From positions 32,001-96,000 of IMG/VR virus record IMGVR_UViG_3300025389_000014: 64,000 bases of DNA; one strand, 5' to 3'. The notes under the pieces are model-generated. The model was not told the origin of the DNA. It worked only from the letters and a program-made list of their open reading frames with translations, and searched no databases. A program made the translations under genes and the position numbers. Shown piece after piece: positions 6,801 through 33,340 of this stretch (positions are counted from its first letter, which is position 1; each line of letters begins with the position of its first letter). This stretch comes from a virus. Lineage: Duplodnaviria; Caudoviricetes.

Positions 6801-9800
6801 GTTAGAGATGTTTAGAGCGCTAGATATAGTACCGCCGTTGAATATGTTCTGTGTTACTGCATCAACCCAGGCACCGTTATAGTATATCGCCAATGTACCA
6901 ACTTGACTGTCCCACCAGAATTGACCTTGTGCGGCACCGCTAGGTGCTGTATCACTTACGGTAACACTGCTGACCAGTGATCCATTGACAAACAGACCAC
7001 CTGCATTGATAGTGCCTGCAACGCCTAGCCCGCCAGCGATGACCACCGCACCTGTTGTAGTGCTAGTACTTGAAGCTGTTGAACCAACGATTAGATTTCC
7101 ACCTAGCCCAACGCCACCTGCCACAGTCAGTGCTGCCGAGCTGGTACTTGTGGCTAGTGTGGTATTGGTTATAGTGAATATGTCTGGGCTGGTTATCTGT
7201 GTCTGGGTGATCGTAGTATAGACGATGTTTAACTGATTAGCGGTTATAGTTCCGCCAACTACTAAATTACCACCTATTCCAACACCGCCTGCTACAGTCA
7301 GTGCACCAGTAGTTGTTGAGGTACTGGTCGCTGTTCCACTGATAGTTAAATTGGTAAATGTAGATCCTACATCAACCTGTATACCACCAGCATAGATCTG
7401 GCCGCCGGCATAGATATTACCTGCTACTCCGAGACCGCCGGCGATCTGTACCGCGCCTGTATTGGTAGATATAGAACTAGTAGTATTAGATACTATCAAT
7501 GGAGCAGTTATCGTACCACCATTGAATATGTTCTGTGTTACAGCATCTACCCAGGTTCCTGTGTAATAAATCGCCAATGTACCAACCTGGCTGTCCCACC
7601 ATAGAGCACCGTTGGTTGGGTTACTTGGAGCTGTATCACTAATCGTTATAGAAGCTGATCCACCCGCGGCAGCATAGTTGCCTATGGTGGCCGTGGTGAT
7701 TATCTGTGCACCGTTGATATATGATGTATTGCCGATATAGACACTACCACCTACACCAACGCCACCTGCTACAGTCAATGCACCTGTAGTAGTTGAAGTT
7801 GAGCTTGTGGTATTATTGATGCTGAATACGCCGACACCTGGATTGTAAACTAAATTGGTACCCGCATCATTGATTATGCTCAGTGTACCAGTGGTTGTTG
7901 ACACAAATGTCAAGAAATAGTTAGTAGCTGAGCTAGAAGTTGATATTAAGACACTAGTAGCTGTAGTTGAATATTGAGAGAAAGTAGCTGATGTGACCGC
8001 AAAGTTAGCTATGGTAGCAGTGGTTACGATCTGTGCCCCAGCGATATAAGATGTTGTGTTGATATATACTGCGCCACCAATACCGACTCCTCCTGCTACA
8101 ACCAAAGCACCCGTTGTAGTTGATGTTGAGCTTGTGGTATTATTAATGAATACTGTGCTAGTTGTAGTACCAGTAAATGAACCCGATGCACCTTGAGATC
8201 CTACATAACCAATTGATCCTGTATACCCTATAACACCTTGCGTACCTGTAGAACCTGTATACCCAACGCTACCTGTGTAACCAGTGCTGCCGGTATATCC
8301 CGCGCTGCCGGTATATCCCGCGCTGCCAGTATAACCAATACTACCTGTGTAACCAATGCCCCCAAGAGCAGATAATGTAGCGGTAGTAACAATCTGTGCA
8401 CCGGCAATATAAGATGTAGTGTTGATATACATAGCACCACCAACACCTACCCCGCCTGCTACTACTAATGCGCCTGTTGTAGTTGATGTCGACGGTGTTA
8501 CAGATGTAGCAGTAAACGATCCAGCTGTAAATGTACCAATACCAATAATGTTAACAACACCAGTGATATCTCCGCCTGCTCCTGATACTGATAGGCTTGT
8601 AGCAGTTATTACACCGCCTGCAAAGATGCCACCACCTACTCCAATACCGCCTGCTACTGTTAATGCGCCAGTTGTGGTCGAAGTGGTATTGGTAGAGCTA
8701 GTTATTATAACAGTCTGGAATGTACCTGTGGTAGCAGTAAAATCAGTAAAACTTGAACTGGCTGTTAAATTAATTGAACCAGCGACATTAATATTACCAC
8801 CAACCCATAGATCTTTGCCTATACCAGCACCGCCAGTGACGATCAGCGCACCTGTAGTTGTGCTGGTACTAGAACTTGTATTTGTAGTAATGATTTGGAA
8901 AGCTGTAGTTCCAGTAAATGAGCCTTGACTTCCAACGTAGCCAACACTACCAGTGTAACCAACACTTCCCCAATAACCAGTACTACCTGTATAACCTAAT
9001 GGCCCTTGATTACCGGTACTACCTGTAAGTCCCACACTACCGGTATATCCCTGTGATCCTGAATAACCCTGGCTACCTACATAACCAATACTACCATAGT
9101 AACCTTGACTACCGGTGTAACCTATACTACCCCAATATCCAGTTGATCCTGTATAACCTTGACTACCAGTGTAGCCTTGACTTCCATCATACCCTTGGCT
9201 ACCTGTGTATCCGGTACTACCTATATAACCAGTACTGCCGGTATAGCCAGTACTACCTGTATAACCTAATGGCCCTTGATTACCGGTACTACCTGTAAGT
9301 CCCACACTACCGGTATATCCCTGTGATCCATTATAACCAGTGCTGCCGGTATAGCCGGTACTACCTGTATAACCCTGGCTACCTGCGTATCCTTGACTAC
9401 CTGCATAGCCCAGACTGCCGGTATATCCCTGTGAACCATTGTATCCTTGGCTACCTGCATAGCCCTGTGAACCAGTATATCCTTGACTGCCCGCATAACC
9501 TTGACTACCCGTATATCCGAGGTCACCTTGTGATCCAGTATAACCGATATCACCTTGGCTACCTGCGTAACCTTGACTTCCGCCATATCCCTGGCTACCA
9601 GTATAACCACCTGATCCTGTATAACCACCTGATCCAGTGTAACCAATGCTGCCTGTGTAACCAACGCTACCTGTAAATCCAGTACTACCTATATAGCCCA
9701 GACTACCTGTATATCCTTGGCTACCTATATAACCAGTTGATCCTGTGTATCCGATGCTACCGGTATAGCCTAAGCTACCTGTGTAACCGTAGCCGATGCT

Positions 9801-12800
9801 GTTTCCATTGAGATAGATAGCGCCCTGGACCCAGAGGTTGCTACCGATGCCAACACCGCCAGCGACTACCAATGCGCCTGTACCTGTAGATATGCTGGTC
9901 GTGGTGTTAGTGATCGTGAATACATCTGGAGTTGTTATTAAAGTTGTAGTTACGGTAGTGTACTGTATGTCTAATTCTTGGGCGACAATTTTACCACCAA
10001 CATAGAGATCTCCGCCTATGCCTGCACCACCTGTGACCTGTAGGGCTCCTGAATTTGTACCTGTAGATTGCGTAGGATTAGTTGTGATGATCTGTAGATC
10101 TGTAGTACCTGTAAAACTACCAGTACTACCAGTATAGCCAATACTCCCAGTATAGCCCTGTGATCCATCATATCCTTGGCTACCTGTGTATCCCTGTGAT
10201 CCGGTGTAACCTTGGCTACCTGTATAACCTTCGCTTCCTGTGTATCCTAATGATCCAGTGTAACCTAGACTACCTGTGAATCCTGTACTGCCTGTATAAC
10301 CTTGGCTTCCTGTATAACCTAAACTGCCTGTGTAGCCTTGACTACCCACATAGCCTAATGATCCAGTGTAACCTAGGCTACCTGTGAATCCCGTACTGCC
10401 TGTGTAACCCTGACTACCTGCGTAGCCCTGGCTACCTGTATACCCTTGACTTCCTGCGTAACCTTGACTACCTGTATAACCGAGGCTTCCTGTATAGCCT
10501 TGGCTACCTGTATAACCTGTACTACCTGTGTAGCCCTGTGAGCCATCGTAGCCTTGGCTACCTACATAGCCCTGACTACCTACGTATCCTGTGTCGCCTT
10601 GTGATCCGGTATAACCAATGTCACCTTGACTACCTATATAACCTTGGCTTCCTGTGTATCCCAGACTACCTGTGTAGCCTTGACTACCAGTAAATCCAAT
10701 ACTACCTGTATAGCCTCGACTACCGGTATAGCCTTGGCTGCCATCGTAGCCTTGGCTTCCTACATAGCCTAAACTACCGGTATAGCCTTGTGATCCTGTA
10801 TAACCTTGACTACCTGTGTATCCTTGACTGCCCGCATAGCCCTGGCTACCTGTATAACCAGTTGATCCTGTATAACCTAGACTACCTGTATAGCCTTGGC
10901 TTCCATAATATCCTTGACTACCTGTATATCCAATATCGCCTTGTGATCCGGTATAACCAATGTCGCCTTGTGAACCAGTATAACCAATATCACCTTGGCT
11001 ACCAGTATAACCAGTTGATCCAGTGAACCCGATACTACCAGTATATCCTTGGCTACCAGTATATCCCTCACTACCTGTATATCCTGTTGAACCTACATAT
11101 CCGATACTACCTGTGTATCCAGTGCTGCCTGTATAACCGAGGCTGCCTGTGTATCCTTGACTACCAGTATATCCGGTGCTGCCTGTGTATCCTTGGCTAC
11201 CATCGTAACCGATAACACCTTGACTACCTATATAACCTATGACCCCTTGGCTGCCGGTGTATCCTTGACTACCTGTGTATCCCTGACTACCATCATAGCC
11301 TTGGCTACCAGTAAATCCAATACTACCAGTATAGCCCTGACTTCCTGAATAGCCCTGGCTACCAGTAAATCCAATACTACCGGTATAGCCTAGACTACCG
11401 GTGTAGCCTTGACTACCTGTATAGCCCCGACTGCCGGTAAATCCAATACTACCAGTATATCCTTGAGGACCCAGATAGGCCCATTGAGCTATAGTAGCTG
11501 TTGTAACGATTATGGCGCCAGCTATATATGATGTTGTGTTGATATATACTGCGCCACCTACTCCAACACCACCAGCTACTGTCAATGCTCCGGAGTTGAC
11601 ATCTGAGCTAGATGCTGTGCTGGCTAATATGATGTTACCAGTTTTGAATGTGCCGTAGCCTGCTCCATAGAATGTGCCTGTTGAGCTTTCTGCGCCGGTA
11701 TTATACCATTCTAGATATTGGCTGTCATCAGCTAATACCAATGCCGCGTTGCTGTCAGAACCCAGTGTTCTATTGTAGTAGTGGAAACGCAGTCCTACAT
11801 CTTTGCCATCATCAGAAGGCCAAGAACCGTATACACCACCAGGAGGAACGTGTACTTCTAGGATGTTGTCTGTGTAATAGGTATTGGAACTTAATGAGTA
11901 GGTAGCTGTACCGCTGAATGTTACAGGACTGCTGAATGTCACTGGGCCCCAGACCTGCATAGCGCCACCAACATTCAAGTTGCCGCCTATGCCAACACCG
12001 CCGGTTACCTGTAGAGCACCTGTGGTGGAGTTTATTGAATTCGTGCCATTTGTTATAGTAATCAACTGATTAGTTGAACTGCCTCTAGATGTCACACTCT
12101 GTAGTGTGCTGACATCGCTGATAGTAACATTACCAGTGTTGGTATTGACTGAAATATCTGTACCAGCACTGATGTAGAGCACACCGGTATTATTGATACG
12201 AGTATAGTCTGTGGCAGTGGTTAGACTGATACCAGGGCCTGCTTGTAAACTAGCCTGTATAAATGAAACACCACTAGAAGTAGTGATGATATTGGCCTTG
12301 TTGACAAACAGTTCACCACCGACGAACAAATCTCCACCGATGCCAACTCCACCTGCCACTGTGAGTGCTCCGGTATAGGTATTGGTACTGCTGGTCTGAT
12401 TGGTAATTGCGACTCCGCCTACGGTCAATACCTGTAGACTGCTGTCGTAAGTTAGATTGCTATCTGCGTCTAGTGCTGAGTAATTGCCGTCCTTCTGTTC
12501 TGCTAGTGTTACATAATAGGTCTGGGCAGGTATGGAATTGTTGATGGTGATATTCTGTGCATTGGTAGCTGAATTAACTGTGCTGGAAACATTAGCACCA
12601 CCGATGGTGCCATAGATTACACCACCTACATATAGATCTTCGCCGATGCCAACTCCACCTGCTACGGTCAACGCACCGCTATTTGTACCGGCTGAACCGG
12701 TGGCATTGGTGATATTGATAGCGTTGGTTGTAGTATGTCCACGGGCTGTAACAGTCTGTAATGTGCTGGTATTGTTGACTATCACAGCGCCTGTAGTAGT

Positions 12801-15800
12801 ATTGACACTGATGTCAACTCCGCCCGATACACTAGTAGCCGCATAACTGCTGATACTGCTGGTAGTGATCGCTAGTGAGCCTAGTACAGTTAGATCACCA
12901 CCTACGACTAGATTTTTTCCAATACCAACACCACCGGCCACGATCAGGGCACCTGTAGTAGTACTGGTACTATTTTCTGTAGATGTAATGTCTAGATTAG
13001 TGCTGGTCGAAGATCCACTGATGATCAGCGATCCGCCCACATTTAGGTTGCCGCCAATACCTACACCACCCGATACTATCAGAGCACCTGTAGTAGTGCT
13101 GGTACTGCCAGCATTGTTGTTGATCTGTGTTTGATTACCAGTAGCACTGGTTCCACCTGCGGTTACAGCGATACTGAAAGATTTAGTAACACTCTGTGGT
13201 TGGCTGTCGGTTACTGTAATATTAAAAGAAGTAGCTGAACTGACCACAGACGGTGTACCACTGACAACACCTGTGCTGGAATTTAGACTCAATCCCGCAG
13301 GCAGTGCAGGAGTGATAGAGTAGCTGTATGGACTGACTCCGCCTAGTACCTGTACAGGACTAAAATTAGCCGCTTGATTTTGTGGTAGACTGACGTTCTG
13401 ATTGCCAACAGTTACGCTGAGTGCGGAAGGCGCAGTTTGGAATACGCTGAGGTTAAACGAACCAGTCGACGATTGATTTATGCCGTCTGTGATAGTTACT
13501 ATATAAGAACTAGTTCCGCTGGTCGCAGTAGGAGTACCTGTGATCTGTCCTGTACCTGAATTGAAACTCAACCCTGCAGGTAAACTGGTGCTTAGGCTAT
13601 AGCTTAGACTGCCATATCCTCCCGATCCTGTGACTGGTGTAAAAGGATTGGCTAATTGATATACTACCAGTGTAGTCGAAGGAACTGAGACTGTGGCTAC
13701 TACCGCCTGTGGTGCTACCGCTAGGCTAAAATTACTGCTGGTAGTCTGACTGATAGGATCAGTTATGGTTATAGTATAGGTAGCAGTGGTACTAGTAGTA
13801 CTAGGTGCTCCGTTGATTTGTCCATTAGTTGAATTTAATATCAGTCCTGAAGGCAATCCAGGCAGTACACTGTAACTGTAAGCGCCGTAGCCGCCTGATC
13901 CTGTGACTGGAGCCACAGGTGAAAGATATAGTCCAGCATACGCAGTGATTGATCCGTTAACAGTAGTAGCTACCAATGCAGCCGGTGGTATGACCTGTAG
14001 ATTCAGTGTCTGGCTAGTTGTAGAACTGACAGCATCAGTGATAGTAATAGTGTAGGCTGTTGGTCCTACTGTGGCTGTTGGAGTTCCAGATATAACACCT
14101 GTGCTAGAATTTAGACTGAGTCCTGTGACCAAACCTGGTGTTATAGAATAAACTACCGGTGCTGTTCCACCTACATAGGTAACTGGAGTAAACGGTGTTA
14201 CTGCTACATATTCTGTCAGTGTAGCCACACTGATTACGCTAGTCGATGTCAGTGCCGGACTAGAAACTGTTAGATAAAATGAACTAGAACTGATCTGTCC
14301 AATGCTGTCTACTCCAACTACTTGATATGCTGTCTGTGAACTGGCCTGTGTTGGTGTTCCTGTTATCTGTCCTTGAGATGAAAAAGCCAATCCAGCGGAT
14401 AAACTAGGATTGACGCTTAAGGTAATACTGCCGTATCCGCCAGAAGCCTGTACAGGTGTAAACGGTGTTACAGCCACCGATCTAGTCAATGTGGTAGCAG
14501 TCACTACTGTAGTCAGTGTCAGTGCTGTAGGATTAGCAATGCTGATCGAGAACGTTCCTGTGCCTGCATGACCAACTGTATCAGTGATGGTGACTGCGTA
14601 ATTAGATGTGTTGGCCACTGTTGGTGTGCCAGACACAAATCCTGTGGCTGTATTGAATACTAATCCTGTGGCCAGTGCAGGGTAAACACTGTAGTTGTAA
14701 GGTGTCGCTCCTCCGGCGGCTGTGACTGGTTGGAAGCCAGTAGCACTGACTCCGCGAGTCATGTTGGTTGAAGGCACAGCTACTGAAACTGAAAATGCCG
14801 GTGTTAGTACTGTAAGATTAAAACTGTTGCTGGCAGTTTGGCCTGCTTGATCATTTACCGTGATGGTAAATGTAGTAGCATTGACTAGATAGGCAGTAGG
14901 AGTTCCACTGATCTGTCCAGAAGTAGTATCAAATGTCAATCCCGCAGGCAGTGTAGGAGCTATACTATAAGTTAGTGTACCATATCCGCCTGTAGCAGAT
15001 ACAGGTGTAAATGGTGTGGCTGCTACACCCTGTGTCAGTGTTAGATTGCTAACTGACTTAGTAAGGCTAATAGCTGTAGGATTCAGTACAGTAAGGCTAA
15101 AAGAACTAGTTCCTACTTGACTAGCAGAATCTGTAACAGCTACTACATAGCTAGTAGCAGGACTGCTGGTTGTAGCGACACCCGATATATAACCGCTGCT
15201 GGTACTGAATGCCAATCCAGATGGTAAACTAGGAGTTACAGTATAGGCATAAGGAGTATAACCACCACTGGCTGTTACTGGAATGAATGTGCTGAATGTA
15301 ACATTGCGATATAGCAGTGTGCTAGGAACCTGTGTAGCTACTGAGATCGGAACACTGCTGACGCTTAGAGCAAAGGTTCCGGTGGCTGTTTGACCTCCTT
15401 GATCAGCTAGACTTACTGTATAGGTAGCTGTAGAGCTGGTAGTGGTAGGTGTGCCGGTTACTGAACCATTGCTGGAGCTGTAGCTTAATCCAGCGGGAAG
15501 GCTAGGATTGATAGCGTAGCTGATCGTTCCGTATCCGCCATTGGCTCGTACAGGAGTAAATGCTGTTACCGCTGTGGCCCTATAGAGATTATAACTAGGC
15601 TGTGTTTGTATAGCGGTCAACGGAGTAAGATTGTTGATCGTTAGATTAAATGTCTGGCTGGCTGACTGATTTAGACTGTCAACTACAGCGATGGTAAAAT
15701 TAGTAGCCGCTAATGAACTAGAAGGCACTCCGCTAATGGCTCCAGTACTAGTGGTAAATGTCAGTCCACTAGGTAAACTAGGCGTTATCGTATAGCGTAA

Positions 15801-16775
15801 AGGTGCTGTACCTCCTGCTCCTGTTACCGGTATAAATGAAGTAAAACTAACACCTTGCGTTAATGTCTTATTGGGAATAGCCAGCGTTGCTGTAGGTACA
15901 TTGGCCTGTACTAATAGATTAAATGATGCTGTGGCTGTCTGTACGGGACTGCTCTGATCCTGTGCTGTTACAGTATAGGCTGTCAGGCTAGCACTTACTG
16001 TAGGGGTTCCGCTGATGTGTCCTGTGCTAGTGCTAAATGCTAGACTAGTAGGCAATGATGGGCTGATGCTGTAGGTTATGCTACCACTACCGCCAGCCGA
16101 GCTCACTGTGGCTAGGTCACCGATTGATACTCCTTGTGTTAATACCTGATTGGTAGTGAGTAAATTGGTCAGAGTCAAAGGACTCTGATTGCTCAATACC
16201 GCTAGACTAAAGCTAGCATTAGCAGTTAATCCGCTGGCATCAGTGAAACTCACTGTATAAGCCTGTGAAGGACTTGCGGCCGAGGTAGTTCCACTGACTA
16301 CTATGTTAGCAGAGTTATATAGATAGTAGTTGCTATCTACTGAGTTTAATTGTTTTAGTGTGGTAAATGTTGATGTAAAACTCAATCCTGCCGGCAGGCT
16401 AGGACTTATAGTTACGTTATAACCAACGAATGTTCCAGATGTATTATAGCTGGTAGCTACTGCTGATCCACCATAGATGCTGACAGGAGTAAAATTCGCG
16501 GCCTGCCCCTGTGTAACTGTCTGGCTAGGCACTAGTACCGTAGTAGTTAGTCCAGGAACAGTCGGCGGTTGTGTGCTGGTGCCTGGAATGTAGGGATTAG
16601 TTAAACCGTGATCTGATGCAGACGGGGCATAGTTACTCCATACCAAACTTAGTGTTTTAGTAAGTTTGGTTAACCCGCTGACACTGCTGACTACGATATC
16701 ACCAGTGCTGGTACTGTATTGTTTTAAGGTGGTACTAGGGGTCGAACTAGGGTGAGGATAATAATAAATTGCCAT
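3870..16775 (-). CDS. Giant fibre/adhesin protein (4301 aa): 12 putative Ig (He_PIG-like) domains, ~28 TTTGALxVxGGxGxG repeats, four collagen-like blocks, four GxxWWDSQVG modules
   Basis: Domains read directly from the translation: LP.GL.F...TG.ISGTPT x12, long (G-Y-T-G-S-x)n runs, and a C-terminal AFSVAMSVVFGA. Confidence 0.85.
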   Translation of the reverse strand: MAIYYYPHPSSTPSTTLKQYSTSTGDIVVSSVSGLTKLTKTLSLVWSNYAPSASDHGLTNPYIPGTSTQPPTVPGLTTTVLVPSQTVTQGQAANFTPVSIYGGSAVATSYNTSGTFVGYNVTISPSLPAGLSFTSTFTTLKQLNSVDSNYYLYNSANIVVSGTTSAASPSQAYTVSFTDASGLTANASFSLAVLSNQSPLTLTNLLTTNQVLTQGVSIGDLATVSSAGGSGSITYSISPSLPTSLAFSTSTGHISGTPTVSASLTAYTVTAQDQSSPVQTATASFNLLVQANVPTATLAIPNKTLTQGVSFTSFIPVTGAGGTAPLRYTITPSLPSGLTFTTSTGAISGVPSSSLAATNFTIAVVDSLNQSASQTFNLTINNLTPLTAIQTQPSYNLYRATAVTAFTPVRANGGYGTISYAINPSLPAGLSYSSSNGSVTGTPTTTSSTATYTVSLADQGGQTATGTFALSVSSVPISVATQVPSTLLYRNVTFSTFIPVTASGGYTPYAYTVTPSLPSGLAFSTSSGYISGVATTSSPATSYVVAVTDSASQVGTSSFSLTVLNPTAISLTKSVSNLTLTQGVAATPFTPVSATGGYGTLTYSIAPTLPAGLTFDTTSGQISGTPTAYLVNATTFTITVNDQAGQTASNSFNLTVLTPAFSVSVAVPSTNMTRGVSATGFQPVTAAGGATPYNYSVYPALATGLVFNTATGFVSGTPTVANTSNYAVTITDTVGHAGTGTFSISIANPTALTLTTVVTATTLTRSVAVTPFTPVQASGGYGSITLSVNPSLSAGLAFSSQGQITGTPTQASSQTAYQVVGVDSIGQISSSSFYLTVSSPALTSTSVISVATLTEYVAVTPFTPVTYVGGTAPVVYSITPGLVTGLSLNSSTGVISGTPTATVGPTAYTITITDAVSSTTSQTLNLQVIPPAALVATTVNGSITAYAGLYLSPVAPVTGSGGYGAYSYSVLPGLPSGLILNSTNGQINGAPSTTSTTATYTITITDPISQTTSSNFSLAVAPQAVVATVSVPSTTLVVYQLANPFTPVTGSGGYGSLSYSLSTSLPAGLSFNSGTGQITGTPTATSGTSSYIVTITDGINQSSTGSFNLSVFQTAPSALSVTVGNQNVSLPQNQAANFSPVQVLGGVSPYSYSITPALPAGLSLNSSTGVVSGTPSVVSSATSFNITVTDSQPQSVTKSFSIAVTAGGTSATGNQTQINNNAGSTSTTTGALIVSGGVGIGGNLNVGGSLIISGSSTSTNLDITSTENSTSTTTGALIVAGGVGIGKNLVVGGDLTVLGSLAITTSSISSYAATSVSGGVDISVNTTTGAVIVNNTSTLQTVTARGHTTTNAINITNATGSAGTNSGALTVAGGVGIGEDLYVGGVIYGTIGGANVSSTVNSATNAQNITINNSIPAQTYYVTLAEQKDGNYSALDADSNLTYDSSLQVLTVGGVAITNQTSSTNTYTGALTVAGGVGIGGDLFVGGELFVNKANIITTSSGVSFIQASLQAGPGISLTTATDYTRINNTGVLYISAGTDISVNTNTGNVTISDVSTLQSVTSRGSSTNQLITITNGTNSINSTTGALQVTGGVGIGGNLNVGGAMQVWGPVTFSSPVTFSGTATYSLSSNTYYTDNILEVHVPPGGVYGSWPSDDGKDVGLRFHYYNRTLGSDSNAALVLADDSQYLEWYNTGAESSTGTFYGAGYGTFKTGNIILASTASSSDVNSGALTVAGGVGVGGAVYINTTSYIAGAIIVTTATIAQWAYLGPQGYTGSIGFTGSRGYTGSQGYTGSLGYTGSIGFTGSQGYSGSQGYTGSIGFTGSQGYDGSQGYTGSQGYTGSQGVIGYIGSQGVIGYDGSQGYTGSTGYTGSQGYTGSLGYTGSTGYTGSIGYVGSTGYTGSEGYTGSQGYTGSIGFTGSTGYTGSQGDIGYTGSQGDIGYTGSQGDIGYTGSQGYYGSQGYTGSLGYTGSTGYTGSQGYAGSQGYTGSQGYTGSQGYTGSLGYVGSQGYDGSQGYTGSRGYTGSIGFTGSQGYTGSLGYTGSQGYIGSQGDIGYTGSQGDTGYVGSQGYVGSQGYDGSQGYTGSTGYTGSQGYTGSLGYTGSQGYAGSQGYTGSQGYAGSQGYTGSTGFTGSLGYTGSLGYVGSQGYTGSLGYTGSQGYTGSTGFTGSLGYTGSLGYTGSEGYTGSQGYTGSQGYTGSQGYDGSQGYTGSIGYTGSTGSFTGTTDLQIITTNPTQSTGTNSGALQVTGGAGIGGDLYVGGKIVAQELDIQYTTVTTTLITTPDVFTITNTTTSISTGTGALVVAGGVGIGSNLWVQGAIYLNGNSIGYGYTGSLGYTGSIGYTGSTGYIGSQGYTGSLGYIGSTGFTGSVGYTGSIGYTGSGGYTGSGGYTGSQGYGGSQGYAGSQGDIGYTGSQGDLGYTGSQGYAGSQGYTGSQGYAGSQGYNGSQGYTGSLGYAGSQGYAGSQGYTGSTGYTGSTGYNGSQGYTGSVGLTGSTGNQGPLGYTGSTGYTGSTGYIGSTGYTGSQGYDGSQGYTGSQGYTGSTGYWGSIGYTGSQGYYGSIGYVGSQGYSGSQGYTGSVGLTGSTGNQGPLGYTGSTGYWGSVGYTGSVGYVGSQGSFTGTTAFQIITTNTSSSTSTTTGALIVTGGAGIGKDLWVGGNINVAGSINLTASSSFTDFTATTGTFQTVIITSSTNTTSTTTGALTVAGGIGVGGGIFAGGVITATSLSVSGAGGDITGVVNIIGIGTFTAGSFTATSVTPSTSTTTGALVVAGGVGVGGAMYINTTSYIAGAQIVTTATLSALGGIGYTGSIGYTGSAGYTGSAGYTGSTGYTGSVGYTGSTGTQGVIGYTGSIGYVGSQGASGSFTGTTTSTVFINNTTSSTSTTTGALVVAGGVGIGGAVYINTTSYIAGAQIVTTATIANFAVTSATFSQYSTTATSVLISTSSSATNYFLTFVSTTTGTLSIINDAGTNLVYNPGVGVFSINNTTSSTSTTTGALTVAGGVGVGGSVYIGNTSYINGAQIITTATIGNYAAAGGSASITISDTAPSNPTNGALWWDSQVGTLAIYYTGTWVDAVTQNIFNGGTITAPLIVSNTTSSISTNTGAVQIAGGLGVAGNIYAGGQIYAGGIQVDVGSTFTNLTISGTATSTSTTTGALTVAGGVGIGGNLVVGGTITANQLNIVYTTITQTQITSPDIFTITNTTLATSTSSAALTVAGGVGLGGNLIVGSTASSTSTTTGAVVIAGGLGVAGTINAGGLFVNGSLVSSVTVSDTAPSGAAQGQFWWDSQVGTLAIYYNGAWVDAVTQNIFNGGTISSALNISNSTSATSTATGALIVGGGVGVGGAVYIANTSYINGAQIITTATIALYGGVGYTGSIGYTGSIGYTGSTGTQGSIGYTGSIGYTGSAGTQGSIGYTGSIGYTGSTGTQGSIGYTGSTGTQGVIGYTGSAGVSTTSSYATTATTSSYATTASNILLSTVSSNQSYYITFVSTTTGTINVVSDAGSKLTYNPSTGVLTNAGTATTTSTLTGALVVTGGVGIGGNLAIGGGIYAGGSTGTNGQYLQSTGAGIQWVSLSSSFTGGAVANATQFNNTTSSTSTTTGAVTIAGGLGVQGNINFGGNLYQNGVLFTGGGGGSASITVSDTPPTTTTNGALWWDSQVGNLAIYYSAAGAWVDAVSQYQFNGGIVTGVTQFTNTASTTSTTTGALVVTGGVGIGGGLIVGGNVTATNFYISGGIQVDAGSTLTNLLLNSTASTTSTTTGALVVTGGVGIGGGLVVGGNVTATNFYITGGIQVDSGSTLTNLILNSTASTTSTTTGALVVAGGVGIGGNLVVGGSITAQQLNIVYTTITQTQITSPDIFTITNATSATSTITGALVVAGGVGIGGALYVNGEVNVSTATSTGTNTGALVIAGGLGVGGNIYAGGLIYANGALVSNVIISDTPPPNPTAGQFWWDSQVGNLAIWYVSGGSGQWVDAVSQTLFNGGVVANAMTIQATTSATSTLTGALIVGGGVGISGAIYAANTSYIAGAQVITTATIANYAAGGVITGTTATFVISNTTSSTSTTTGALQVTGGAGIGGSVYIANTSYIAGAQIITTATIFNYAVATATFATFASTASSLIVNTSSASAQYYITFLNTTSGTTSVITDAGSSLTYNPALGQLVSPVHLVTSSTVSIGTQSGALVVTGGAGIGGSLYAGNIYSNGSQLVPGAIQEFTATQGQSIFTVTGGYTVGSIIASANGITLGSSDYTASNGTTIVLNSARNAGDVVRVFYGMFAPATNVNAQKAFSVAMSVVFGA
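6420..6660 (-). repeat. Collagen-like block 4 (short)
   Basis: GVGYTGSIGYTGS...GTQGVIGYTGSAG. Confidence 0.85.
8185..8365 (-). repeat. Collagen-like block 3 (short)
   Basis: GIGYTGSIGYTGSAG...GSQGASG. Confidence 0.85.
8921..9795 (-). repeat. Collagen-like block 2, containing an exact 83-bp duplication (8977-9059 = 9247-9329)
   Basis: GYTGSx runs. The sequence ccagtactacctgtataacctaatggccc...ccctgtgatcc occurs twice, 270 bp apart. Confidence 0.9.
10114..11472 (-). repeat. Collagen-like block 1, about 150 Gly-X-Y triplets in (GYTGSx)n, 18-bp periodicity
   Basis: Continuous GYTGS[Q/L/T/I] hexapeptides from GPQGYTGS to GSTGSFTG. Confidence 0.9.
13160..16560 (-). repeat. Tandem array of 12 Ig-like (He_PIG-type) domains of ~90 aa
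   Basis: Twelve copies of PV...GG.....Y...P.LP.GL.F....G.ISGTPT......Y.V...D counted by eye. Confidence 0.8.
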
Positions 16776-23929: not shown

Positions 23930-26900
23930 TTATTCGATAGCCAATATGAACGGTGTCATGTTGGCATATAAACTCTGTACAAATGTCCTTCCACTCAATA
24001 CTCCTGTAGCCTGGCTGATAACCAGACCAGTACCAATACGGAAATCACCGTTTTGGTCAGTTGATGTGAAGAACACCTTACCACTATTTAACGAGATAGT
24101 TTCATGACCCTGTATAGGATCTGCTATTCCTCTCTGTGGTAATGCCCCGTAGTTACTGCCAGCGCCTACATATTCAAACACATATCCGCTAGCTGAGATA
24201 TAACTGCGCTCATAGAAATTAACCGTGCTACCATCTGGAAATAGGCTGGTGTCTGTCACAGCTTCGCCCAGTTCTACCACATGATAAGTTCCAGGACGGC
24301 TCCAATAGCTGAGTCCGCTATAGACAGAATTATAATTACCACCCGATTCTAAATCATAGAGTAACTGCTGTAGTATCAACTTAACATCTCGGGCACATTT
24401 AGCAGTTTGGCTGTCAGACATGCTTCCTGCCAATATGCTAGCATAGTTCTGATTGACATAGGCGACGATTTCGTTGGCCAAGAAATCTATATTGGCTTTT
24501 ATTAGAGTTACGGCTGATCCAGCTCCACTAGGTATAGTTCCCGATGTGGTTATCAATCCGCTAGGTACCACAGACTGTGCGGCTGCTAGATTAGCGGCTC
24601 CTATTATGCTGGTCATGTAATTAAACCGTAGATCGATAAAACTCTGTGCTCCAGACCCACCAGTTACATTAAGATTAATAAACTGACCCGATGTCAACCA
24701 ACCTCCTACGGGTGCAGTATTAGCGATCACAGCATCCACCGCTGTTTTCAAATATTCGATGCTGACTATGTGTGCTGAAATCTGATTTATACTGGGACCT
24801 TGATACTGTGGATTAGTATTGGCGCTGAGTATATTCTGTCCAGGAGCGTATGGCTGGACGGCTACACTGCTGGTCTGTACTGTGTAATAGGCATGTCCGC
24901 AGAAATATAGAGTAAAATATGTGTTGTTAGTTGGATCGCCACCACCGCTGGTCAGAGCCTGTGTGAGACTGATACTGTTGTAATTTACATCACTGACTGT
25001 GGTTCCTGGAGGAATATAATATATTCCGTTGGCATCTTTTTCACTGCCAAACTGATCTCGGATGTAGACTGTGTTGCCTATGTATACATCTGTGGTATCT
25101 ATATTGACCAATTCTATAGTACCTGTGGTCAGTGTGCTGGTGCTGGGCTGTGCATTTAAGAAACCATTAAATCCTTGATTGTTAACATAGGTCTCTGGAG
25201 GAATGATCTCCATGACCTGACCAATGTGCGGACGATTGCTGGTGTCTGGTACGAATACTTCTACCAACCCACCGGACCCCGGAAAATAACCATTAGGGTA
25301 ATAAGGGTCTAGTTCCGCATTGAAAGGATAAGCACGATTGACGGGATTGAAAACCGTACCACTGAAATCTCTAGGTCCATAGCCCTTGGCTACTAGACAG
25401 AGATCTCCAAAGTTGGCATTACTGTTTACGATGCTGGCCTTGCCGCCATTATCGCACTGTACACCAACTGAACAGAAAATAGTAAACACAGAAACCAACT
25501 GTGCATAGCCGTTATTGGTAATATGCACACCGTAACCGCCTTGATTGACCTGTGTATAAGCGTCATAGACGAATGACTGTATAGGTGATCTATCTGAGAT
25601 CACAGCGCCATCTACTAGGCTGCCACCCATACTGCCAAACTTGTCTACCTTGCGTTGATTCCATGTATTTCTTGATCCTGTATACTGATAGCTGAGATCT
25701 TCTACCTGACCATCCTGAAGAGGAAAAACGTAAATGTTGCCAAAATACAGTGTGGCATTGGTACCAAATCCCACAGTGGCCGTGCTGAGTCCCACGGTTA
25801 TGGTTCCGTCTGTGTTGGTGTTGATAGCTGTGACGGTAGGCGCTATTTTTACATCACTGCCATTTAGGCCTGTGAGGCTGAATAATCCACCACCTGCATA
25901 CGGAGGAGGTGCCTGTTCAGGTCCGTTGCTGATAATGTCTGTGATGATCTTGAAATTACGCTGTATAGCTTCTTGAGGCATGTAGGCATTGCCGCCATCA
26001 AAGAATGGATTTATTACCTGTGTGGCCACTGTGCCAGTGACTGGTGTTACAGGTGTGTTAGCAATGATCTGCAGAGCTATGTCTCTAGCGTAGTTTAGGG
26101 CCTGTGTAGTGGTCGATTCCTGACCTGCTATATAGTTGTAACCGGCATTCCAATAACTGTTGCCTGCTTCTAGACTCTTTTGATTTCCGCCTAGCAGTAT
26201 GTCTTGGCTGACTGCATCTATGATCAGTCCTGTGTCTCGATAGCACTTGTCTTGATCGTAATTAAACGATCCTGGATTATAGGTCTGATCTAGATGAGCG
26301 ATAACCTCAGCCGCTATAAACTCTCGATTGGCTTTGAGTATATTCCAAGCGTTAACTGTAGATGCCGACGAACTAGGTGTGATAGGCATAGGACTCAAAG
26401 GTCCAGCTACTCCGGGACCATTGCCAATGATGTTGGTTATTATACCCAGATAGCTTGCCACCATGTCGGCATCACCGCCTGCTCCTACCGGTAATCCAAG
26501 AACTGGTTTAATTGATCGTTGTAGAGGTTGGTAATCATTTCCCTGTATCAGAGCACGAGCCACTGATCCTATGAAGGTAAATGCGTCTACTGTGGCCGGT
26601 ATTTCGTTGGGAATTACTGTGTCATTGTTGGTGTTAGCATAATAGCTGAGACCGCTCTGTATGGCCTGTCTATTTCCTCCGTAGAGTAGATCAAATGCCA
26701 CACTTTCTACTATGTAACCAACATCTCGAGCGCACTTAGACGCGTCAAATGACAGGCTAGGAAAATCAGATAATACACTGGCTACTACTTCTAAGGCCAA
26801 ATATCCTGTGTTGGCCAACAGTAAATTGACTGTGTTTCTCACACTCGGAAGGTCGCTGGCAGAGCCGTTGGGTATGACCATGTCTGTTAGTCCTGCGGTG

Positions 26901-29152
26901 TTGCCTCGCAGTATGCTCAATATGAGATCAAATTCTGTACCAATGATCGATACTTCGGCTGACGTAGCATGATTGCTGGCAGTGGTTTGTACGCCGCTGG
27001 TATATCTAGAGATGCCTACCAATGCATCTGTGGATGTGGTGATGTTCTGTACTACCTTCAGGCTGAGATCTTTTAGATAAGAGATGGCAGCTATGGTAGC
27101 TGTTATCTCAGCTGGTATAGAACCTGTATAGGTGTTTTGGCTGTAATACTGTAGTCCTGCAAACGTACTCTGACTACTGGTAGAAAATAACAGGTCGCTG
27201 GCCACGCTGTCGATGATGATTCTAGTATCTCTACGGCACTTGATCTGATTGTAGGGCAGAGCTTTTGGAGGCACACAGAGATTGTAGTTGATATAGTTGA
27301 CCACATTTTCCTGTATGAAGCTTCTATTGGCCTGCATGAGTATTTCGGCACTGACAAATGCTGAATCTGGTCCAGCACTGTTATAGAGACTAGGAGCAGA
27401 ATCAGGACCATGCAGTATGATTCCTGTGGTTATGTCAAATAGTTTACGCACACTGGCCGTGCTGATCGAACCATCAGTTAACACAGTGTTGATAACCTGT
27501 GAGGCTGCGGGTATGCTGGCAGGAGGTGCTAGAACTGTACACACAGAGTTAGTTACGATTTTCTGGCTCAGTGTGCTGAGATAATTGATGGCTGCTACAG
27601 TCTGCGCTTCTTGTCCAGCTATCACGCTGGTCACTCCGCGATAGTAGGCCCGTCCGCTTTCTATGCTTTTTTCATTTCCACCAAAGGCCATGTCATAGGC
27701 CATGTTTTCTATCAGTATGCCTGTGTCTCTATAGCATAGCTGTTGATTATAGTCGAATCCAGGAAAAGTTGCGTTGACATAGGCCACAACCTGTGCCTGT
27801 AGGAATGGCTTGTTGGCCAACAGGAGCGTGCGAGCATTGAAGAAACCTTGATTGTGCTGTCCGGCGTTGATGCTCTGTCCTAATGATACAGTTCCGGTAG
27901 TGACCGAGATCACTATGCTGGTTGTGTTCACATCCCAGGTTCCTACTCCTATGGCAGCAGGTACCTGCACTGTCTGGTCTGGAACGAACATGGTTCCGTC
28001 TACCAACCAAGGACCACTCTGATTAGTAACATTCTGTACATAGGGGCTGTGGAATAGATCTATGCGATCCGCACCTGACTGTGGAGGAAATGCTGTGGCA
28101 TAGGCTCCTCTGTTGTAGCCTGGAGCATAGTTTCCAGGTAATAGTCCACTGCGACCATTGAGGAAGGTCATGTAGTTTAGATAGCAACCACTCTGTAAGT
28201 GGAATAGATCCTGTGTCTTGTTTATGGGTTCGATGAATGTGGTACGTATGTCACTGCCTTTGACACTGGTATAGGGTTTTAACAGTAGAGGATTATTTTC
28301 TAAATAGTGTCCGGCTGATACCTGTATCTGTGTGCCTGGTTGATAATAAGGTGATTTTAGAGCACCGCCTATGGTACGGCAGGCACGGCTGGCATCCTGC
28401 GCACGACCATCGTTGGTATCGTCTCCGTCTACTGTGACGTATAAGACGTTGGTCACTTCTGGTGCTGTTCCTATAGGATTAACACCACGCACACGTATGT
28501 CGCCTACTATTTCTGTTAGCCCAGACGCGGGCTGTATGCTCACTGGACCTTGTTGGCTACGTATGAACTTGGTATAGAGGTTGTCCACGTACTCATTGCC
28601 ACCTATCCATACATCACCCAATATACCTGCTCCACCTGTGACTGTAAAAGCACCTGTGGTTGGGCTGGTAGATGAAGCTGTGCTGGCCACACTGATCTGA
28701 TCCAACAGGAGTTTACCTGTGTATGGATCGTAGCGCAGTCCACCGGAGGCATAGTCCGAAGTGTTGTCTCCATAGATCATACCACCATTGGCACCGAGAT
28801 TATCTATGAAGAGAGGATAGAAATAGGCATCCACATTGGTAGCTGTGACTGTCATAGCCATGGATGTGTTGGACACGGCCACACGACCGTAGATAAATCC
28901 ACCTACGTTTAGGTCTTGCTCAATACCTACACCGCCGGCAAAATAGGCCGCGCCTGTCTGTCTTTCAGCTGTGTTTCCAAATATATTATTTGGATCATAG
29001 GGGACATTATTGGGATTCCCAACATTGGCCACGCTGTTACCTGTTACTTGACCACTGGCCGTAGTGATCAGATTTATATTACCGCCGGGTGCCGATATGG
29101 TCTGATCACCGTTGGGTGTAATATTCTTGGTTCCGGTAATGCGTTGGGTCAT
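23930..29152 (-). CDS. Tailspike-like parallel beta-helix virion protein (1740 aa) carrying five phycobiliprotein-like C-x-R-D repeats
   Basis: LYVTVDGDDTNDG...RTIGGA, SPYVQN, DAYTQVNQGG.G..ITNNGYAQLVSVFTIFC and FFTSTDQNGDFRIG motifs. The helical repeats are described in findings. Confidence 0.75.
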   Translation of the reverse strand: MTQRITGTKNITPNGDQTISAPGGNINLITTASGQVTGNSVANVGNPNNVPYDPNNIFGNTAERQTGAAYFAGGVGIEQDLNVGGFIYGRVAVSNTSMAMTVTATNVDAYFYPLFIDNLGANGGMIYGDNTSDYASGGLRYDPYTGKLLLDQISVASTASSTSPTTGAFTVTGGAGILGDVWIGGNEYVDNLYTKFIRSQQGPVSIQPASGLTEIVGDIRVRGVNPIGTAPEVTNVLYVTVDGDDTNDGRAQDASRACRTIGGALKSPYYQPGTQIQVSAGHYLENNPLLLKPYTSVKGSDIRTTFIEPINKTQDLFHLQSGCYLNYMTFLNGRSGLLPGNYAPGYNRGAYATAFPPQSGADRIDLFHSPYVQNVTNQSGPWLVDGTMFVPDQTVQVPAAIGVGTWDVNTTSIVISVTTGTVSLGQSINAGQHNQGFFNARTLLLANKPFLQAQVVAYVNATFPGFDYNQQLCYRDTGILIENMAYDMAFGGNEKSIESGRAYYRGVTSVIAGQEAQTVAAINYLSTLSQKIVTNSVCTVLAPPASIPAASQVINTVLTDGSISTASVRKLFDITTGIILHGPDSAPSLYNSAGPDSAFVSAEILMQANRSFIQENVVNYINYNLCVPPKALPYNQIKCRRDTRIIIDSVASDLLFSTSSQSTFAGLQYYSQNTYTGSIPAEITATIAAISYLKDLSLKVVQNITTSTDALVGISRYTSGVQTTASNHATSAEVSIIGTEFDLILSILRGNTAGLTDMVIPNGSASDLPSVRNTVNLLLANTGYLALEVVASVLSDFPSLSFDASKCARDVGYIVESVAFDLLYGGNRQAIQSGLSYYANTNNDTVIPNEIPATVDAFTFIGSVARALIQGNDYQPLQRSIKPVLGLPVGAGGDADMVASYLGIITNIIGNGPGVAGPLSPMPITPSSSASTVNAWNILKANREFIAAEVIAHLDQTYNPGSFNYDQDKCYRDTGLIIDAVSQDILLGGNQKSLEAGNSYWNAGYNYIAGQESTTTQALNYARDIALQIIANTPVTPVTGTVATQVINPFFDGGNAYMPQEAIQRNFKIITDIISNGPEQAPPPYAGGGLFSLTGLNGSDVKIAPTVTAINTNTDGTITVGLSTATVGFGTNATLYFGNIYVFPLQDGQVEDLSYQYTGSRNTWNQRKVDKFGSMGGSLVDGAVISDRSPIQSFVYDAYTQVNQGGYGVHITNNGYAQLVSVFTIFCSVGVQCDNGGKASIVNSNANFGDLCLVAKGYGPRDFSGTVFNPVNRAYPFNAELDPYYPNGYFPGSGGLVEVFVPDTSNRPHIGQVMEIIPPETYVNNQGFNGFLNAQPSTSTLTTGTIELVNIDTTDVYIGNTVYIRDQFGSEKDANGIYYIPPGTTVSDVNYNSISLTQALTSGGGDPTNNTYFTLYFCGHAYYTVQTSSVAVQPYAPGQNILSANTNPQYQGPSINQISAHIVSIEYLKTAVDAVIANTAPVGGWLTSGQFINLNVTGGSGAQSFIDLRFNYMTSIIGAANLAAAQSVVPSGLITTSGTIPSGAGSAVTLIKANIDFLANEIVAYVNQNYASILAGSMSDSQTAKCARDVKLILQQLLYDLESGGNYNSVYSGLSYWSRPGTYHVVELGEAVTDTSLFPDGSTVNFYERSYISASGYVFEYVGAGSNYGALPQRGIADPIQGHETISLNSGKVFFTSTDQNGDFRIGTGLVISQATGVLSGRTFVQSLYANMTPFILAIE

Positions 29153-31085: not shown

Positions 31086-31271
31086 TTAATCTTGGAAATA
31101 TTCAAACCCGCTAGCAACTACTCGAATTGATCCGTCTTTCATAGTAAGTAGATATTCAGTACGATCTGCACTTAAACTGACTCTGGCATAGTCGTCAGGC
31201 CCAATGCCAGATTGAGTTAGAGTCGTATAGAGTGCTTCTTGCATCATTTTTTCATATTGTCTTGAGTTCAT
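31086..31271 (-). CDS. Hypothetical protein (61 aa)
   Basis: Its ATG overlaps the endonuclease stop codon (TAATG) and a GGA SD precedes it. Confidence 0.55.
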   Translation of the reverse strand: MNSRQYEKMMQEALYTTLTQSGIGPDDYARVSLSADRTEYLLTMKDGSIRVVASGFEYFQD

Positions 31272-32068
31272 TATTGTTTTCCTTTACAATTTGTTCCGTG
31301 CCAGCGTTTATACATACCTATACTGGATTCTTTACCACAGTGCTCGCAGGTCTTCTTCATCTGGCTAGGGTGACGTCCTTCTGCTAGTCGTTTGGCATTG
31401 CTGTCTGATCCCACGAAGTTGTGTGTGCCTTCGGCGATACGGCGGTTGTTGAGATCAGGTCCTTGGAAGTTATGTCGACCTTCTGCTACCAGTTTCTTGT
31501 TGAGGGCACCGTTGGCATTAGGTGCGTTGCCATTCTGCCAATGATGTATACCTTGCTCACTGCGCCATTTACTAGGATTGTTGGTTTGGAATATGTTGCG
31601 ACCTCTAGCGGTAGCTAATCTAGAATTTCTGCCATCAAGATTGGGATTATTTTCAACAAACTGTTTCTTTGCTTCTGGATTTTTATTCATCCAATGAGCA
31701 TCACCGGAAAACTTCTCTCTATATTTTTCTGGATCTTTATGAGACCAATGATTATCACCGCTGAGTTTTTTAGCAACCTCCGGACGCTTCATGGGATTAT
31801 TATCTGTATCGAATCCAATAGGATCCGGTGTTCTGTTCATACAATCGGGCTTACCATAGTGTTCGATAAGATAATTTTTCTCTAAAATCTTTAATGAGTC
31901 TGCATCGTCGGCATATTCCAGTATTTCTCTAGTAAGTGAGGATTTATCTTTAATAGACCTAGGCCATTTTCCAGAACCTATATATCCGTCATCTATATTA
32001 TCAGTGCTGTGTCTACCAATATAGTACTTGCCGTTCTTGTGAGTTGTCTTATATATAAAATGTTTCAT
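31271..32068 (-). CDS. Free-standing GIY-YIG (Seg-like) homing endonuclease (265 aa; start re-called at ATG 32068)
   Basis: FIYKTT..NGKYYIGRHST...DDGYIGSG...REILE catalytic domain, repeated G.H[NHW][FW] DNA-binding units, and a C-terminal CEHCGK...RWHG.NC zinc ribbon. Confidence 0.85.
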   Translation of the reverse strand: MKHFIYKTTHKNGKYYIGRHSTDNIDDGYIGSGKWPRSIKDKSSLTREILEYADDADSLKILEKNYLIEHYGKPDCMNRTPDPIGFDTDNNPMKRPEVAKKLSGDNHWSHKDPEKYREKFSGDAHWMNKNPEAKKQFVENNPNLDGRNSRLATARGRNIFQTNNPSKWRSEQGIHHWQNGNAPNANGALNKKLVAEGRHNFQGPDLNNRRIAEGTHNFVGSDSNAKRLAEGRHPSQMKKTCEHCGKESSIGMYKRWHGTNCKGKQ

Positions 32069-32073
32069 ATGTT

Positions 32074-32081
32074 TATTTAGC
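32074..32081 (-). promoter_or_regulatory. Late promoter (GCTAAATA), 5 nt from the endonuclease ATG (leaderless)
   Basis: GCTAAATA-AACAT-ATG. Confidence 0.7.
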
Positions 32082-32112
32082 GTAGTCTGACGCATTACAT
32101 AGATAATCTGGC

Positions 32113-32164: not shown

Positions 32165-33340
32165 TTACTTGAATGAAACGTTTGCGGAAGTTATTCCCAC
32201 TTTTCCCAAATAATCTGCGGCATTCCCAAGCGAACTGGCCGTGTTGCTCAATTCGACGTAACCATAGCGAGTTAAGAAACCAACTACTGGTTCAAAAGTA
32301 GCCGGATCAAGTACAACACCAGAACTCATTAACGGAATATAAGGGCAATAGAACGCGGCAGCATCTGCCTCGCTAGAACCTTTGTAACCGATGAGGACTT
32401 GGTTGTTGTCATCTGTATCACTCTTGTATGCGTCAACATAGATTCTCATAGCGCCATTCAATGTACCAACAAACTTAGTGTTTGTAGGAGCTTCAAATGT
32501 GCCTTCTGTTGTACGAGCAAATGCGCTTGTAGTAGCACTTTGTAGAATTGTTAGAGCTTGGTTACTAACAACAGCCCAGTTACCAGCACCACGACGTGTA
32601 CGCTGAGCAATTAAGTTGCTTACACGGTTGATCTGGATAGCCAGTGCGGCATGCTCGTCACCAACGAATGTTGCTGTACCAGAAACTAATGACTGGTCAT
32701 ATGTTTCTTCTACTGAAGCCAAGCTACGTAGGCTTGCTAGGATCTCTTGATCGATCTCAGCTGTGATTTCCTGTGCTAGTGCGGCCATGATTTCAGCTTC
32801 GATGTCAATACCCTGTTGTGCCTGTGCATCTTGTGCAGCCTCGAATGTCCAGCGTGCGCTTAGTTTACGGCTCTTAGCTTCTACTGGGCTCTTCAAGATC
32901 TGGATGCTCATGCGCTTACCAGGTGTGCCTTCTAGGGCCGCTGTTGAATTAGCCTTAGGATAAGCATCTGTATTGTTACCACTGTAAGCAGCCGCAATCT
33001 TGAATGGGCTTAGTGCCTCATCACCTGCGTTGACGTTGTCGCCACTATCAGCATAACGTACACGTAGAGTGTGGATCTGTCCAACTGGACCTGTCATTGG
33101 CTGTACGCCGATGATTTCGTTTGCAATAACTGTAGGCATCACACGACGGATCACTGGAAGAATAACACGGTTAAGTGTTGCTACGTTACCAGCTGATGTC
33201 GCACCTGCTGTTGCGCTCTCTGTCAAGCTACGACGAGTATTCTCTAAGCATACTGCCATGGCAGCACGGCGATTACCCTGTAGGCCTTCAAGCAGAGCTT
33301 CTTTGGTCTCTGACCATCTTTCATTTAATAACTGTGACAT
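32165..33340 (-). CDS. gp23: Major capsid protein, T4 gp23-like
   Basis: IIGVQPMTGPVGQIHTLR, AKSRKLSARWTFEAAQD, EITAEIDQEI, FYCPYIPL and FLTRYG motifs. Confidence 0.97.
   Translation of the reverse strand: MSQLLNERWSETKEALLEGLQGNRRAAMAVCLENTRRSLTESATAGATSAGNVATLNRVILPVIRRVMPTVIANEIIGVQPMTGPVGQIHTLRVRYADSGDNVNAGDEALSPFKIAAAYSGNNTDAYPKANSTAALEGTPGKRMSIQILKSPVEAKSRKLSARWTFEAAQDAQAQQGIDIEAEIMAALAQEITAEIDQEILASLRSLASVEETYDQSLVSGTATFVGDEHAALAIQINRVSNLIAQRTRRGAGNWAVVSNQALTILQSATTSAFARTTEGTFEAPTNTKFVGTLNGAMRIYVDAYKSDTDDNNQVLIGYKGSSEADAAAFYCPYIPLMSSGVVLDPATFEPVVGFLTRYGYVELSNTASSLGNAADYLGKVGITSANVSFK

Follow-up and report, generated by a model that had tools for sequence, protein, structure and literature searches.

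Why would a phage build into a tail-fiber-type protein a series of domains that resemble phycobiliproteins and keep the cysteine to which those proteins attach their pigment? The question is raised by one gene in a 64,000-nucleotide stretch of viral DNA (Duplodnaviria; Caudoviricetes), positions 32,001 to 96,000 of the IMG/VR record IMGVR_UViG_3300025389_000014, which we refer to as the window. The window is part of a 112,189-bp viral contig with a CheckV completeness of 31%, and the gene is an open reading frame of 1740 amino acids (aa) at 23930-29152 on the minus strand. Our analysis shows that its product is a fiber protein with an inserted array of phycobiliprotein-family globin domains that keep a Cys-x-Arg-Asp (C-x-R-D) motif. 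The phage itself is an uncultured T4-like jumbo phage from a ~350-kb lineage that lacks cyanophage marker genes.

Five repeats in one gene

The original prediction, made from the letters of the window alone, had described five helical repeats in this protein, each with a bilin-binding type of C-x-R-D. The translation bears this out, including the Cys codons, the peptides around them and the spacings of 166, 168 and 163 aa among the first four. The motif occurs exactly five times, against 0.018 expected from the composition of the protein, and none of 20,000 shuffles exceeded two. It lies in five helical segments of ~170 aa that are mutually homologous, with pairwise identities of 21-34%. Alignment of the segments confirms that C, R and D are kept in all five copies. 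A, N, a second D, G, Y and T are likewise invariant; the A-N pair stands 29 residues ahead of the Cys, and the second D is at +11 from the first. A hidden Markov model (HMM) of the repeat matched no other open reading frame of the 112-kb contig. The gene is laid out as follows, all on the minus strand.

23930-29152, minus: whole gene, 1740-aa tail-fiber-type virion protein (P0001), from PHROG tail-fiber families and the structural gene block
27959-29152, minus: N-terminal scaffold, aa 1-398, non-globin, kept in 115 of 121 homologs
27449-27958, minus: globin repeat 1, aa 399-568, Cys473 (27734-27736), from repeat HMM envelope and C-x-R-D
26957-27463, minus: globin repeat 2, aa 564-732, Cys639 (27236-27238), from repeat HMM envelope and C-x-R-D
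26444-26956, minus: globin repeat 3, aa 733-903, Cys807 (26732-26734), from repeat HMM envelope and C-x-R-D
25958-26473, minus: globin repeat 4, aa 894-1065, Cys970 (26243-26245), with a PF00502 match; the repeat that was modeled
24650-25957, minus: middle scaffold, aa 1066-1501, beta-rich, non-globin, present in 121 of 121 homologs
24119-24649, minus: globin repeat 5, aa 1502-1678, Cys1586 (24395-24397), from repeat HMM envelope and phmmer
23930-24118, minus: C-terminal fiber end, aa 1679-1740 plus stop, present in 119 of 121 homologs

Homology to phycobiliproteins

The sole Pfam match of the 1740-aa protein is PF00502 (Phycobilisome protein), whose cut-off of 22.2 bits is exceeded by a score of 36.8 bits (E 4.9e-9). 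This score is a sum over repeats, which singly reach a subthreshold 14.8-16.4 bits; repeat 3 alone, for example, scores 14.8 bits (E 0.029), and repeat 4 matches positions 28-149 of the family. When 68 diverse repeats were compared one at a time, 11 matched PF00502, and other families were matched at most once. Profile and phmmer searches of 177,635 PDB sequences, with the whole protein, a five-repeat profile and a 68-repeat profile as queries, returned almost exclusively the alpha chains of phycocyanin and phycoerythrin. The single protein and the five-repeat profile gave best E-values of 0.02-0.035; with 68 repeats in the profile the best fell to 2.7e-4, and phycobiliproteins made up 33 of the 37 matches to that larger profile. 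The HMMER alignments span helix B through helix E and place the Cys of the repeat on Cys84. Likewise, phmmer aligned aa 1513-1606 of repeat 5 with residues 5-102 of phycoerythrin alpha, again with Cys on Cys84. The motif is in register with the Cys84/Arg86/Asp87 chromophore site of phycobiliproteins, an equivalence that had been proposed for this locus and that gains support from these alignments and from the near-invariance of the motif in more than 1100 repeats.

Predicted structure leads to the same relatives. An AlphaFold2 model of repeat 4, built from a 68-row alignment, has a predicted local distance difference test score (pLDDT) of 88.3 and a predicted template modeling score of 0.83. 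Foldseek E-values for the model were weak (0.08-0.6), with rows that were nearly all globins or phycobiliproteins; in a second look with VIA-align, all of the top 50 were phycobiliproteins (Z 10-10.9, ~3 Å over 120-130 residues). A search of 48,161 representative chains, independent of Foldseek, placed allophycocyanin, phycoerythrin, the bilin domain of ApcE and photocobilin on top (Z 8-10), and its 11 matches with Z of at least 8 were phycobiliproteins, the ApcE bilin domain, photocobilin and globin sensors. Globin-coupled sensors scored 8.3-8.6 in that search and no unrelated fold exceeded 7.5, with the caveat that helical models may reach such Z values through a common arrangement of helices. 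The ESM Atlas yielded no usable match.

Could an unrelated helical repeat simply happen to hold C-x-R-D? The sub-cut-off scores of single repeats and the weak Foldseek E-values are what such a chance resemblance would produce, but the whole-protein Pfam score lies above the cut-off, the profiles match almost exclusively phycobiliproteins, the 48,161-chain search ranks bilin-binding globins first, and the motif is in register with Cys84. We consider chance exceedingly improbable. Homology to the phycobiliprotein domain is the safe conclusion, held with very high confidence, because sequence profile, predicted fold and motif register agree. Both the phycobiliprotein-type globin domains and the globin-like fold that the original prediction had proposed are therefore upheld by sequence profile and by a confident model whose top structural matches are phycobiliproteins.

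The phage domains nevertheless differ from their nearest known relatives, C- and R-phycocyanin and phycoerythrin alpha. Both share a globin-type fold, alignable helices B and E, and C-x-R-D followed by a G-G turn. Phycobiliproteins, however, are free alpha and beta subunits of ~160-180 aa that build the discs of the phycobilisome, whereas the phage domains stand in tandem within a giant virion protein, five of them here and up to 37 elsewhere. Identity is ~15%, some invariant residues are peculiar to the phage domains, and no lyase gene was found in the jumbo relatives.

Conservation of the C-x-R-D site

The repeats belong to a large family. More than 1154 homologs of 2000-3000 aa were found, and 1.84 billion cluster representatives, searched exhaustively with the profile, yielded 1538 proteins at E<=1e-3, the largest of which has 6382 aa and 37 matched stretches. 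Whether databases already flag the similarity could not be judged from the window alone; they do, because many homologs carry precomputed PF00502 matches attached by database pipelines. The repeats were found only as tandem copies inside proteins of 800-6400 aa. A stand-alone, single-domain form was not found in the collection searched, where five short matches were fragments on contigs of less than 1.2 kb.

Conservation of the Cys across homologs, left to be checked by the original prediction, proves to be high. The Cys is retained in 97% of the 1113 full-length repeats found in 121 proteins, the Arg in 99% and the Asp in 100%, and C-x-R-D is present in 623 of 643 repeats from 80 IMG/VR viral loci. 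Ser replaces Cys in only ~2% of repeats. The phage repeats add invariant residues of their own, namely, Asn at -29, Asp at +11 and Tyr at +27. Exactly one Cys is present in 914 of 1183 repeats (77%), and an intradomain disulfide is excluded because a repeat usually has only that one. For a virion protein to retain a lone Cys at this level (97%), the residue should have a chemical role.

That role need not involve a bilin. The Cys could take part in metal coordination between chains, in a disulfide between chains or between repeats, or in binding another tetrapyrrole. Metal sites on the fiber axis are common in phage fibers, Cys and Asp are good metal ligands, and the fold is a globin. However, alignment of the repeats revealed no conserved His and hence no heme-type proximal ligand. 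Single isolated repeats occur after the middle part of some homologs, which together with the one-Cys rule argues against pairing between repeats, and by alignment the Cys sits in the middle of helix E, at the position of the bilin pocket. We regard these other forms of Cys chemistry as quite unlikely.

An optional insertion in a fiber scaffold

The assignment to a fiber-type virion protein is supported by PHROG families and by structural neighbors. PHROG tail-fiber families phrog_5342, 17885 and 4527 match the protein with E 1e-50 to 5e-73, and tail-fiber and baseplate families match aa 1641-1740. The surrounding genes form a T4-like structural block that includes the major head protein gene at 32165-33340, and all 193 of the 193 phage records matched are cyanophage fiber or structural proteins. 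Judging from the annotation of homologs in isolates ("virion structural protein," gp7), the protein is probably located in the virion.

The scaffold seen in 121 homologs has three parts, N-terminal, middle (beta-rich) and C-terminal (62 aa), with 1-13 repeats ahead of the middle one and 0-11 after it. In the window, four domains separate the N-terminal part from the middle part, and the fifth precedes the C-terminal end. PSSM2_021, the 1123-aa tail fiber ortholog in phage P-SSM2, aligns to aa 66-377, 1191-1267 (52% identity) and 1493-1740, and has ~28 aa in place of the 814 aa that hold four globins here; the repeat profile matches nothing in P-SSM2. The globin array is optional and has been inserted, in variable copy number, into a conserved fiber scaffold, since the P-SSM2 ortholog shares the scaffold but lacks the globins. 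The non-globin parts had no match among PDB sequences. We do not name the fold of the middle part because its model is of low confidence (pLDDT 65) and its tailspike-like structural matches are weak.

The N-terminal, middle and C-terminal parts also align with other fiber and baseplate proteins of T4-like cyanophages that carry the same C-x-R-D repeats. In P-HM2 the repeats are found in the 4458-aa baseplate wedge protein gp7 and in one other giant open reading frame. In S-PM2 they are found in two giant proteins, one of which is annotated as a short tail fiber (165928-177267). Within the coding sequence of this 3779-aa "short tail fiber," the S-PM2 record (NC_006820.1, 162500-177500) also lists 16 tRNA features under one locus tag, which looks like a coordinate or annotation artifact.

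This architecture favors an alternative in which a phycobiliprotein or BBAG gene (BBAGs are a globin family discussed below) donated the fold, which now serves, free of chromophore, as a fiber block or spacer. C-x-R-D would then be kept for packing or for contacts between domains, along with Asp (+11) and Tyr (+27). A copy number that varies between conserved flanks is what one would expect of a module that sets length, the P-SSM2 ortholog does without the insertion, and the additional invariant residues, which phycobiliproteins lack, could satisfy the Arg and Asp. Yet packing hardly explains a lone Cys kept at 97% in more than 1100 repeats that are otherwise ~30% identical, nor why conservation falls on precisely the chromophore triad. 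Structural co-option of this kind is possible; it ranks second to bilin binding, and we hold it only tentatively.

Carriers and hosts

Among 50,697 deposited phage genomes, repeat 4 matches 171 records, all of them phages of Synechococcus or Prochlorococcus except for a single record of an uncultured marine virus. No repeat is present in the pelagimyophages Mosig and HTVC008M, which are filed in Kyanoviridae with cyanophages. Relatives of the window's own lineage are contigs of 207-355 kb. In 13 large relatives, including four that are at least 92% complete, psbA, hli, CP12, NblA, CpeT, CpeS and HEAT_2 were not found; AmoC, sought in large relatives as another clue to the host, was not found either. 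Because all of the cyanophage marker genes tested are missing from these relatives, nothing points to a cyanobacterial host. The caution that such a host does not follow from the phycobiliprotein resemblance is thus borne out by near-complete genomes.

A degenerate DNA pattern run on genome contigs located true repeats only in metagenome-assembled genome bins of heterotrophs, namely, Rhodobacteraceae, SAR116, Bacteroidota and a 619-bp contig from an archaeal bin. These are probably mis-binned phage contigs, and we draw no host assignment from them. The Rhodobacteraceae bacterium Water_Bin34 has two of them, FZLS01000008.1 and FZLS01000012.1, at coverages of 5.7x and 87.9x, each encoding a giant protein with 9-10 repeats, and three bilin reductase genes on other contigs. 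One 328-kb relative, G002, encodes HSP20 and ClpS upstream of an adjacent pair of heme oxygenase and bilin reductase genes (G002:C1:158000-170000, 4641-8166). Downstream of the pair are the curli secretion components CsgF and CsgG, followed by FecR- and PA14-domain proteins. Curli export genes are unusual in a phage and hint at a Gram-negative host for G002.

Do the domains bind bilin?

The likeliest reading, to which we assign a probability of roughly 0.45, is that each domain binds a bilin covalently at the Cys of C-x-R-D. Binding would take place during production of the fiber in the infected cell, and attachment would be self-catalyzed, as in BBAGs and ApcE, since relatives encode no known lyase. 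Phages that encode heme oxygenase and bilin reductase would make the bilin themselves, and others would draw it from the host. On assembly, rows of chromophores would be exposed on the particle, most likely as a light-responsive module that conditions adsorption, with a light screen as a second possibility.

Precedents exist for such a system. CXRD is the covalent bilin site in phycobiliproteins and in BBAG-1 and BBAG-3, phycobiliprotein paralogs found outside cyanobacteria, in genomes with heme oxygenase and bilin reductase, that assemble with bilin unaided by a lyase (Rockwell et al. 2023, PMC10151467). These are, going by the published description, the properties that the jumbo-phage carriers would require. 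BBAGs, however, are single-domain cellular proteins whose genes cluster with the reductase, whereas the phage globins are tandem, borne on a fiber and encoded far from the cassette, which is missing in half of the complete phage carriers. ApcE offers a second parallel, as a large multidomain protein whose phycobiliprotein-type domain matches the model at Z 8.4-8.9 and binds its bilin by autocatalysis. It differs from the phage protein in having only one domain of this type, in the position of the Cys and in its place of action inside the phycobilisome.

Bilin cassettes in phages of non-cyanobacteria have been called "still enigmatic," with speculation on a phytochrome or BBAG acceptor (PMC11480375). 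In our data, five relatives reach a completeness of 65% or more, and three of them (G002, G005 and G026) have adjacent genes for heme oxygenase and a ferredoxin-dependent bilin reductase, at a distance from the fiber gene. Among contigs of at least 140 kb with this type of reductase, the repeat is present in six out of six, with 19 copies in G002 and 25 in G005. No GAF or PHY domain was found in these genomes. Of the phycobiliprotein-type globin, GAF and PHY domains tested, the fiber globins are the only bilin-acceptor type detected in cassette-bearing jumbo carriers. If the domains were chromophore-free spacers, the enrichment of heme oxygenase and reductase in carriers would be a coincidence.

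A second line of evidence comes from isolates, for which repeats and bilin-related genes were tabulated as follows.

P-HM1: 4 repeats; CpeT present; bilin reductase present
P-HM2: 4 repeats; CpeT present; bilin reductase present
S-PM2: 9 repeats; CpeT present; bilin reductase absent
P-SSM2: 0 repeats; CpeT absent; bilin reductase present
P-SSP7: 0 repeats; CpeT absent; bilin reductase absent
HTVC008M: 0 repeats; CpeT absent; bilin reductase absent
Mosig: 0 repeats; CpeT absent; bilin reductase present

In these seven isolates every carrier of repeats also has CpeT, as a strict rule would demand, but the jumbo lineage breaks that rule. In S-PM2, cpeT lies 1.4 kb upstream of the repeat-bearing fiber gene on the same strand. 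With respect to light, P-HM1 and P-HM2 do not adsorb in the dark, while P-SSM2 and P-SSP7 do (Liu et al., PMC6628666). S-PM2 is likewise cited there as light dependent for adsorption, and the same paper proposes light-sensitive receptors or tail fibers as the cause. Repeats and light-dependent adsorption co-occur in P-HM1, P-HM2 and S-PM2, and P-SSM2 and P-SSP7 have neither. One could picture a virion photoreceptor in which fiber-borne bilins allow adsorption only in the light and in which the heme oxygenase and reductase cassettes, or CpeT in marine cyanophages, serve in part to load the fiber. As a complete account this is rather unlikely, and gating of adsorption by the array is an attractive inference only.

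Several results weigh against bilin binding. The isolate correlations rest on five to seven phages that are not independent, two of them being near-identical. T-type lyases, moreover, are known to act on the Cys155-type site and not on the Cys84-type site. The model of repeat 4 has no clear G and H helices after residue 138, so the bilin pocket of the repeat may be incomplete, and its C-terminal third is not clearly helical. The genomes raise further doubt. The original prediction had pointed to ho1, bilin reductase and lyase genes as companions to be sought, and none turned up in the contig or in the nearest large relatives. Specifically, the window's own contig, which covers 31% of the genome, has no heme oxygenase, bilin reductase, CpeT or lyase; the nearest large relative (G004) has neither heme oxygenase nor bilin reductase; and lyase-type genes (CpeT, CpeS and HEAT_2) were not found in the contig or in up to 13 large relatives. 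Given the missing cyanophage marker genes, a cyanobacterial supply of bilin cannot be assumed. Furthermore, two relatives without bilin genes, G001 (355 kb, 100% complete) and G003 (332 kb, 93%), keep C-x-R-D intact in 5 of 5 and 13 of 13 repeats despite that lack. Conversely, bilin genes without the repeat are present in Mosig, P-SSM2 and the complete contigs G064 and G067.

Because of the last four genomes, we reject the idea that bilin genes serve strictly and solely to feed the repeat. In Mosig (MT647606.1, 35653-44219), a ferrochelatase, four 2OG-Fe(II) oxygenases, a heme oxygenase and a PcyX-like reductase are encoded in a row by the neck genes. Complete carriers that lack bilin genes, lyases and cyanophage marker genes are also what a chromophore-free building block would predict, and our literature search found no report of pigmented phage particles.

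Implications

Open-access papers and preprints contained, in our search, no paper on phycobiliprotein-type domains in phage virion proteins. The array turns two puzzles into testable questions. The first is why phages, including those of presumed non-photosynthetic hosts, carry heme oxygenase and bilin reductase. The second is what causes the light-dependent adsorption of some cyanomyoviruses, which is independent of host photosynthesis (PMC6628666). Bilin binding, if real, would make this the first phage particle with a pigment, and a new CXRD globin lineage would bear on the origin of phycobiliproteins. If the domains bind none, a light-harvesting fold would have been recruited as a virion building block, in more than 1500 protein clusters in metagenomes.

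Other features of the structural block

The structural block is unusually rich in giant proteins. A 4301-aa open reading frame at 3870-16775 on the minus strand, two genes away from the globin-bearing gene, encodes a second giant fiber-like protein of different build, with collagen triple-helix repeats (PF01391, 369 bits, seven stretches) and 10 He_PIG Ig-like domains. Another of 4487 aa starts at 58862 on the plus strand, runs to the end of the window at 64000 and continues to contig position 104325, and the contig also has open reading frames of 2391 and 1789 aa. Finally, a homing-endonuclease-like open reading frame at 31271-32095 on the minus strand (phrog_314, E 2e-24) adjoins the gene for the major head protein.

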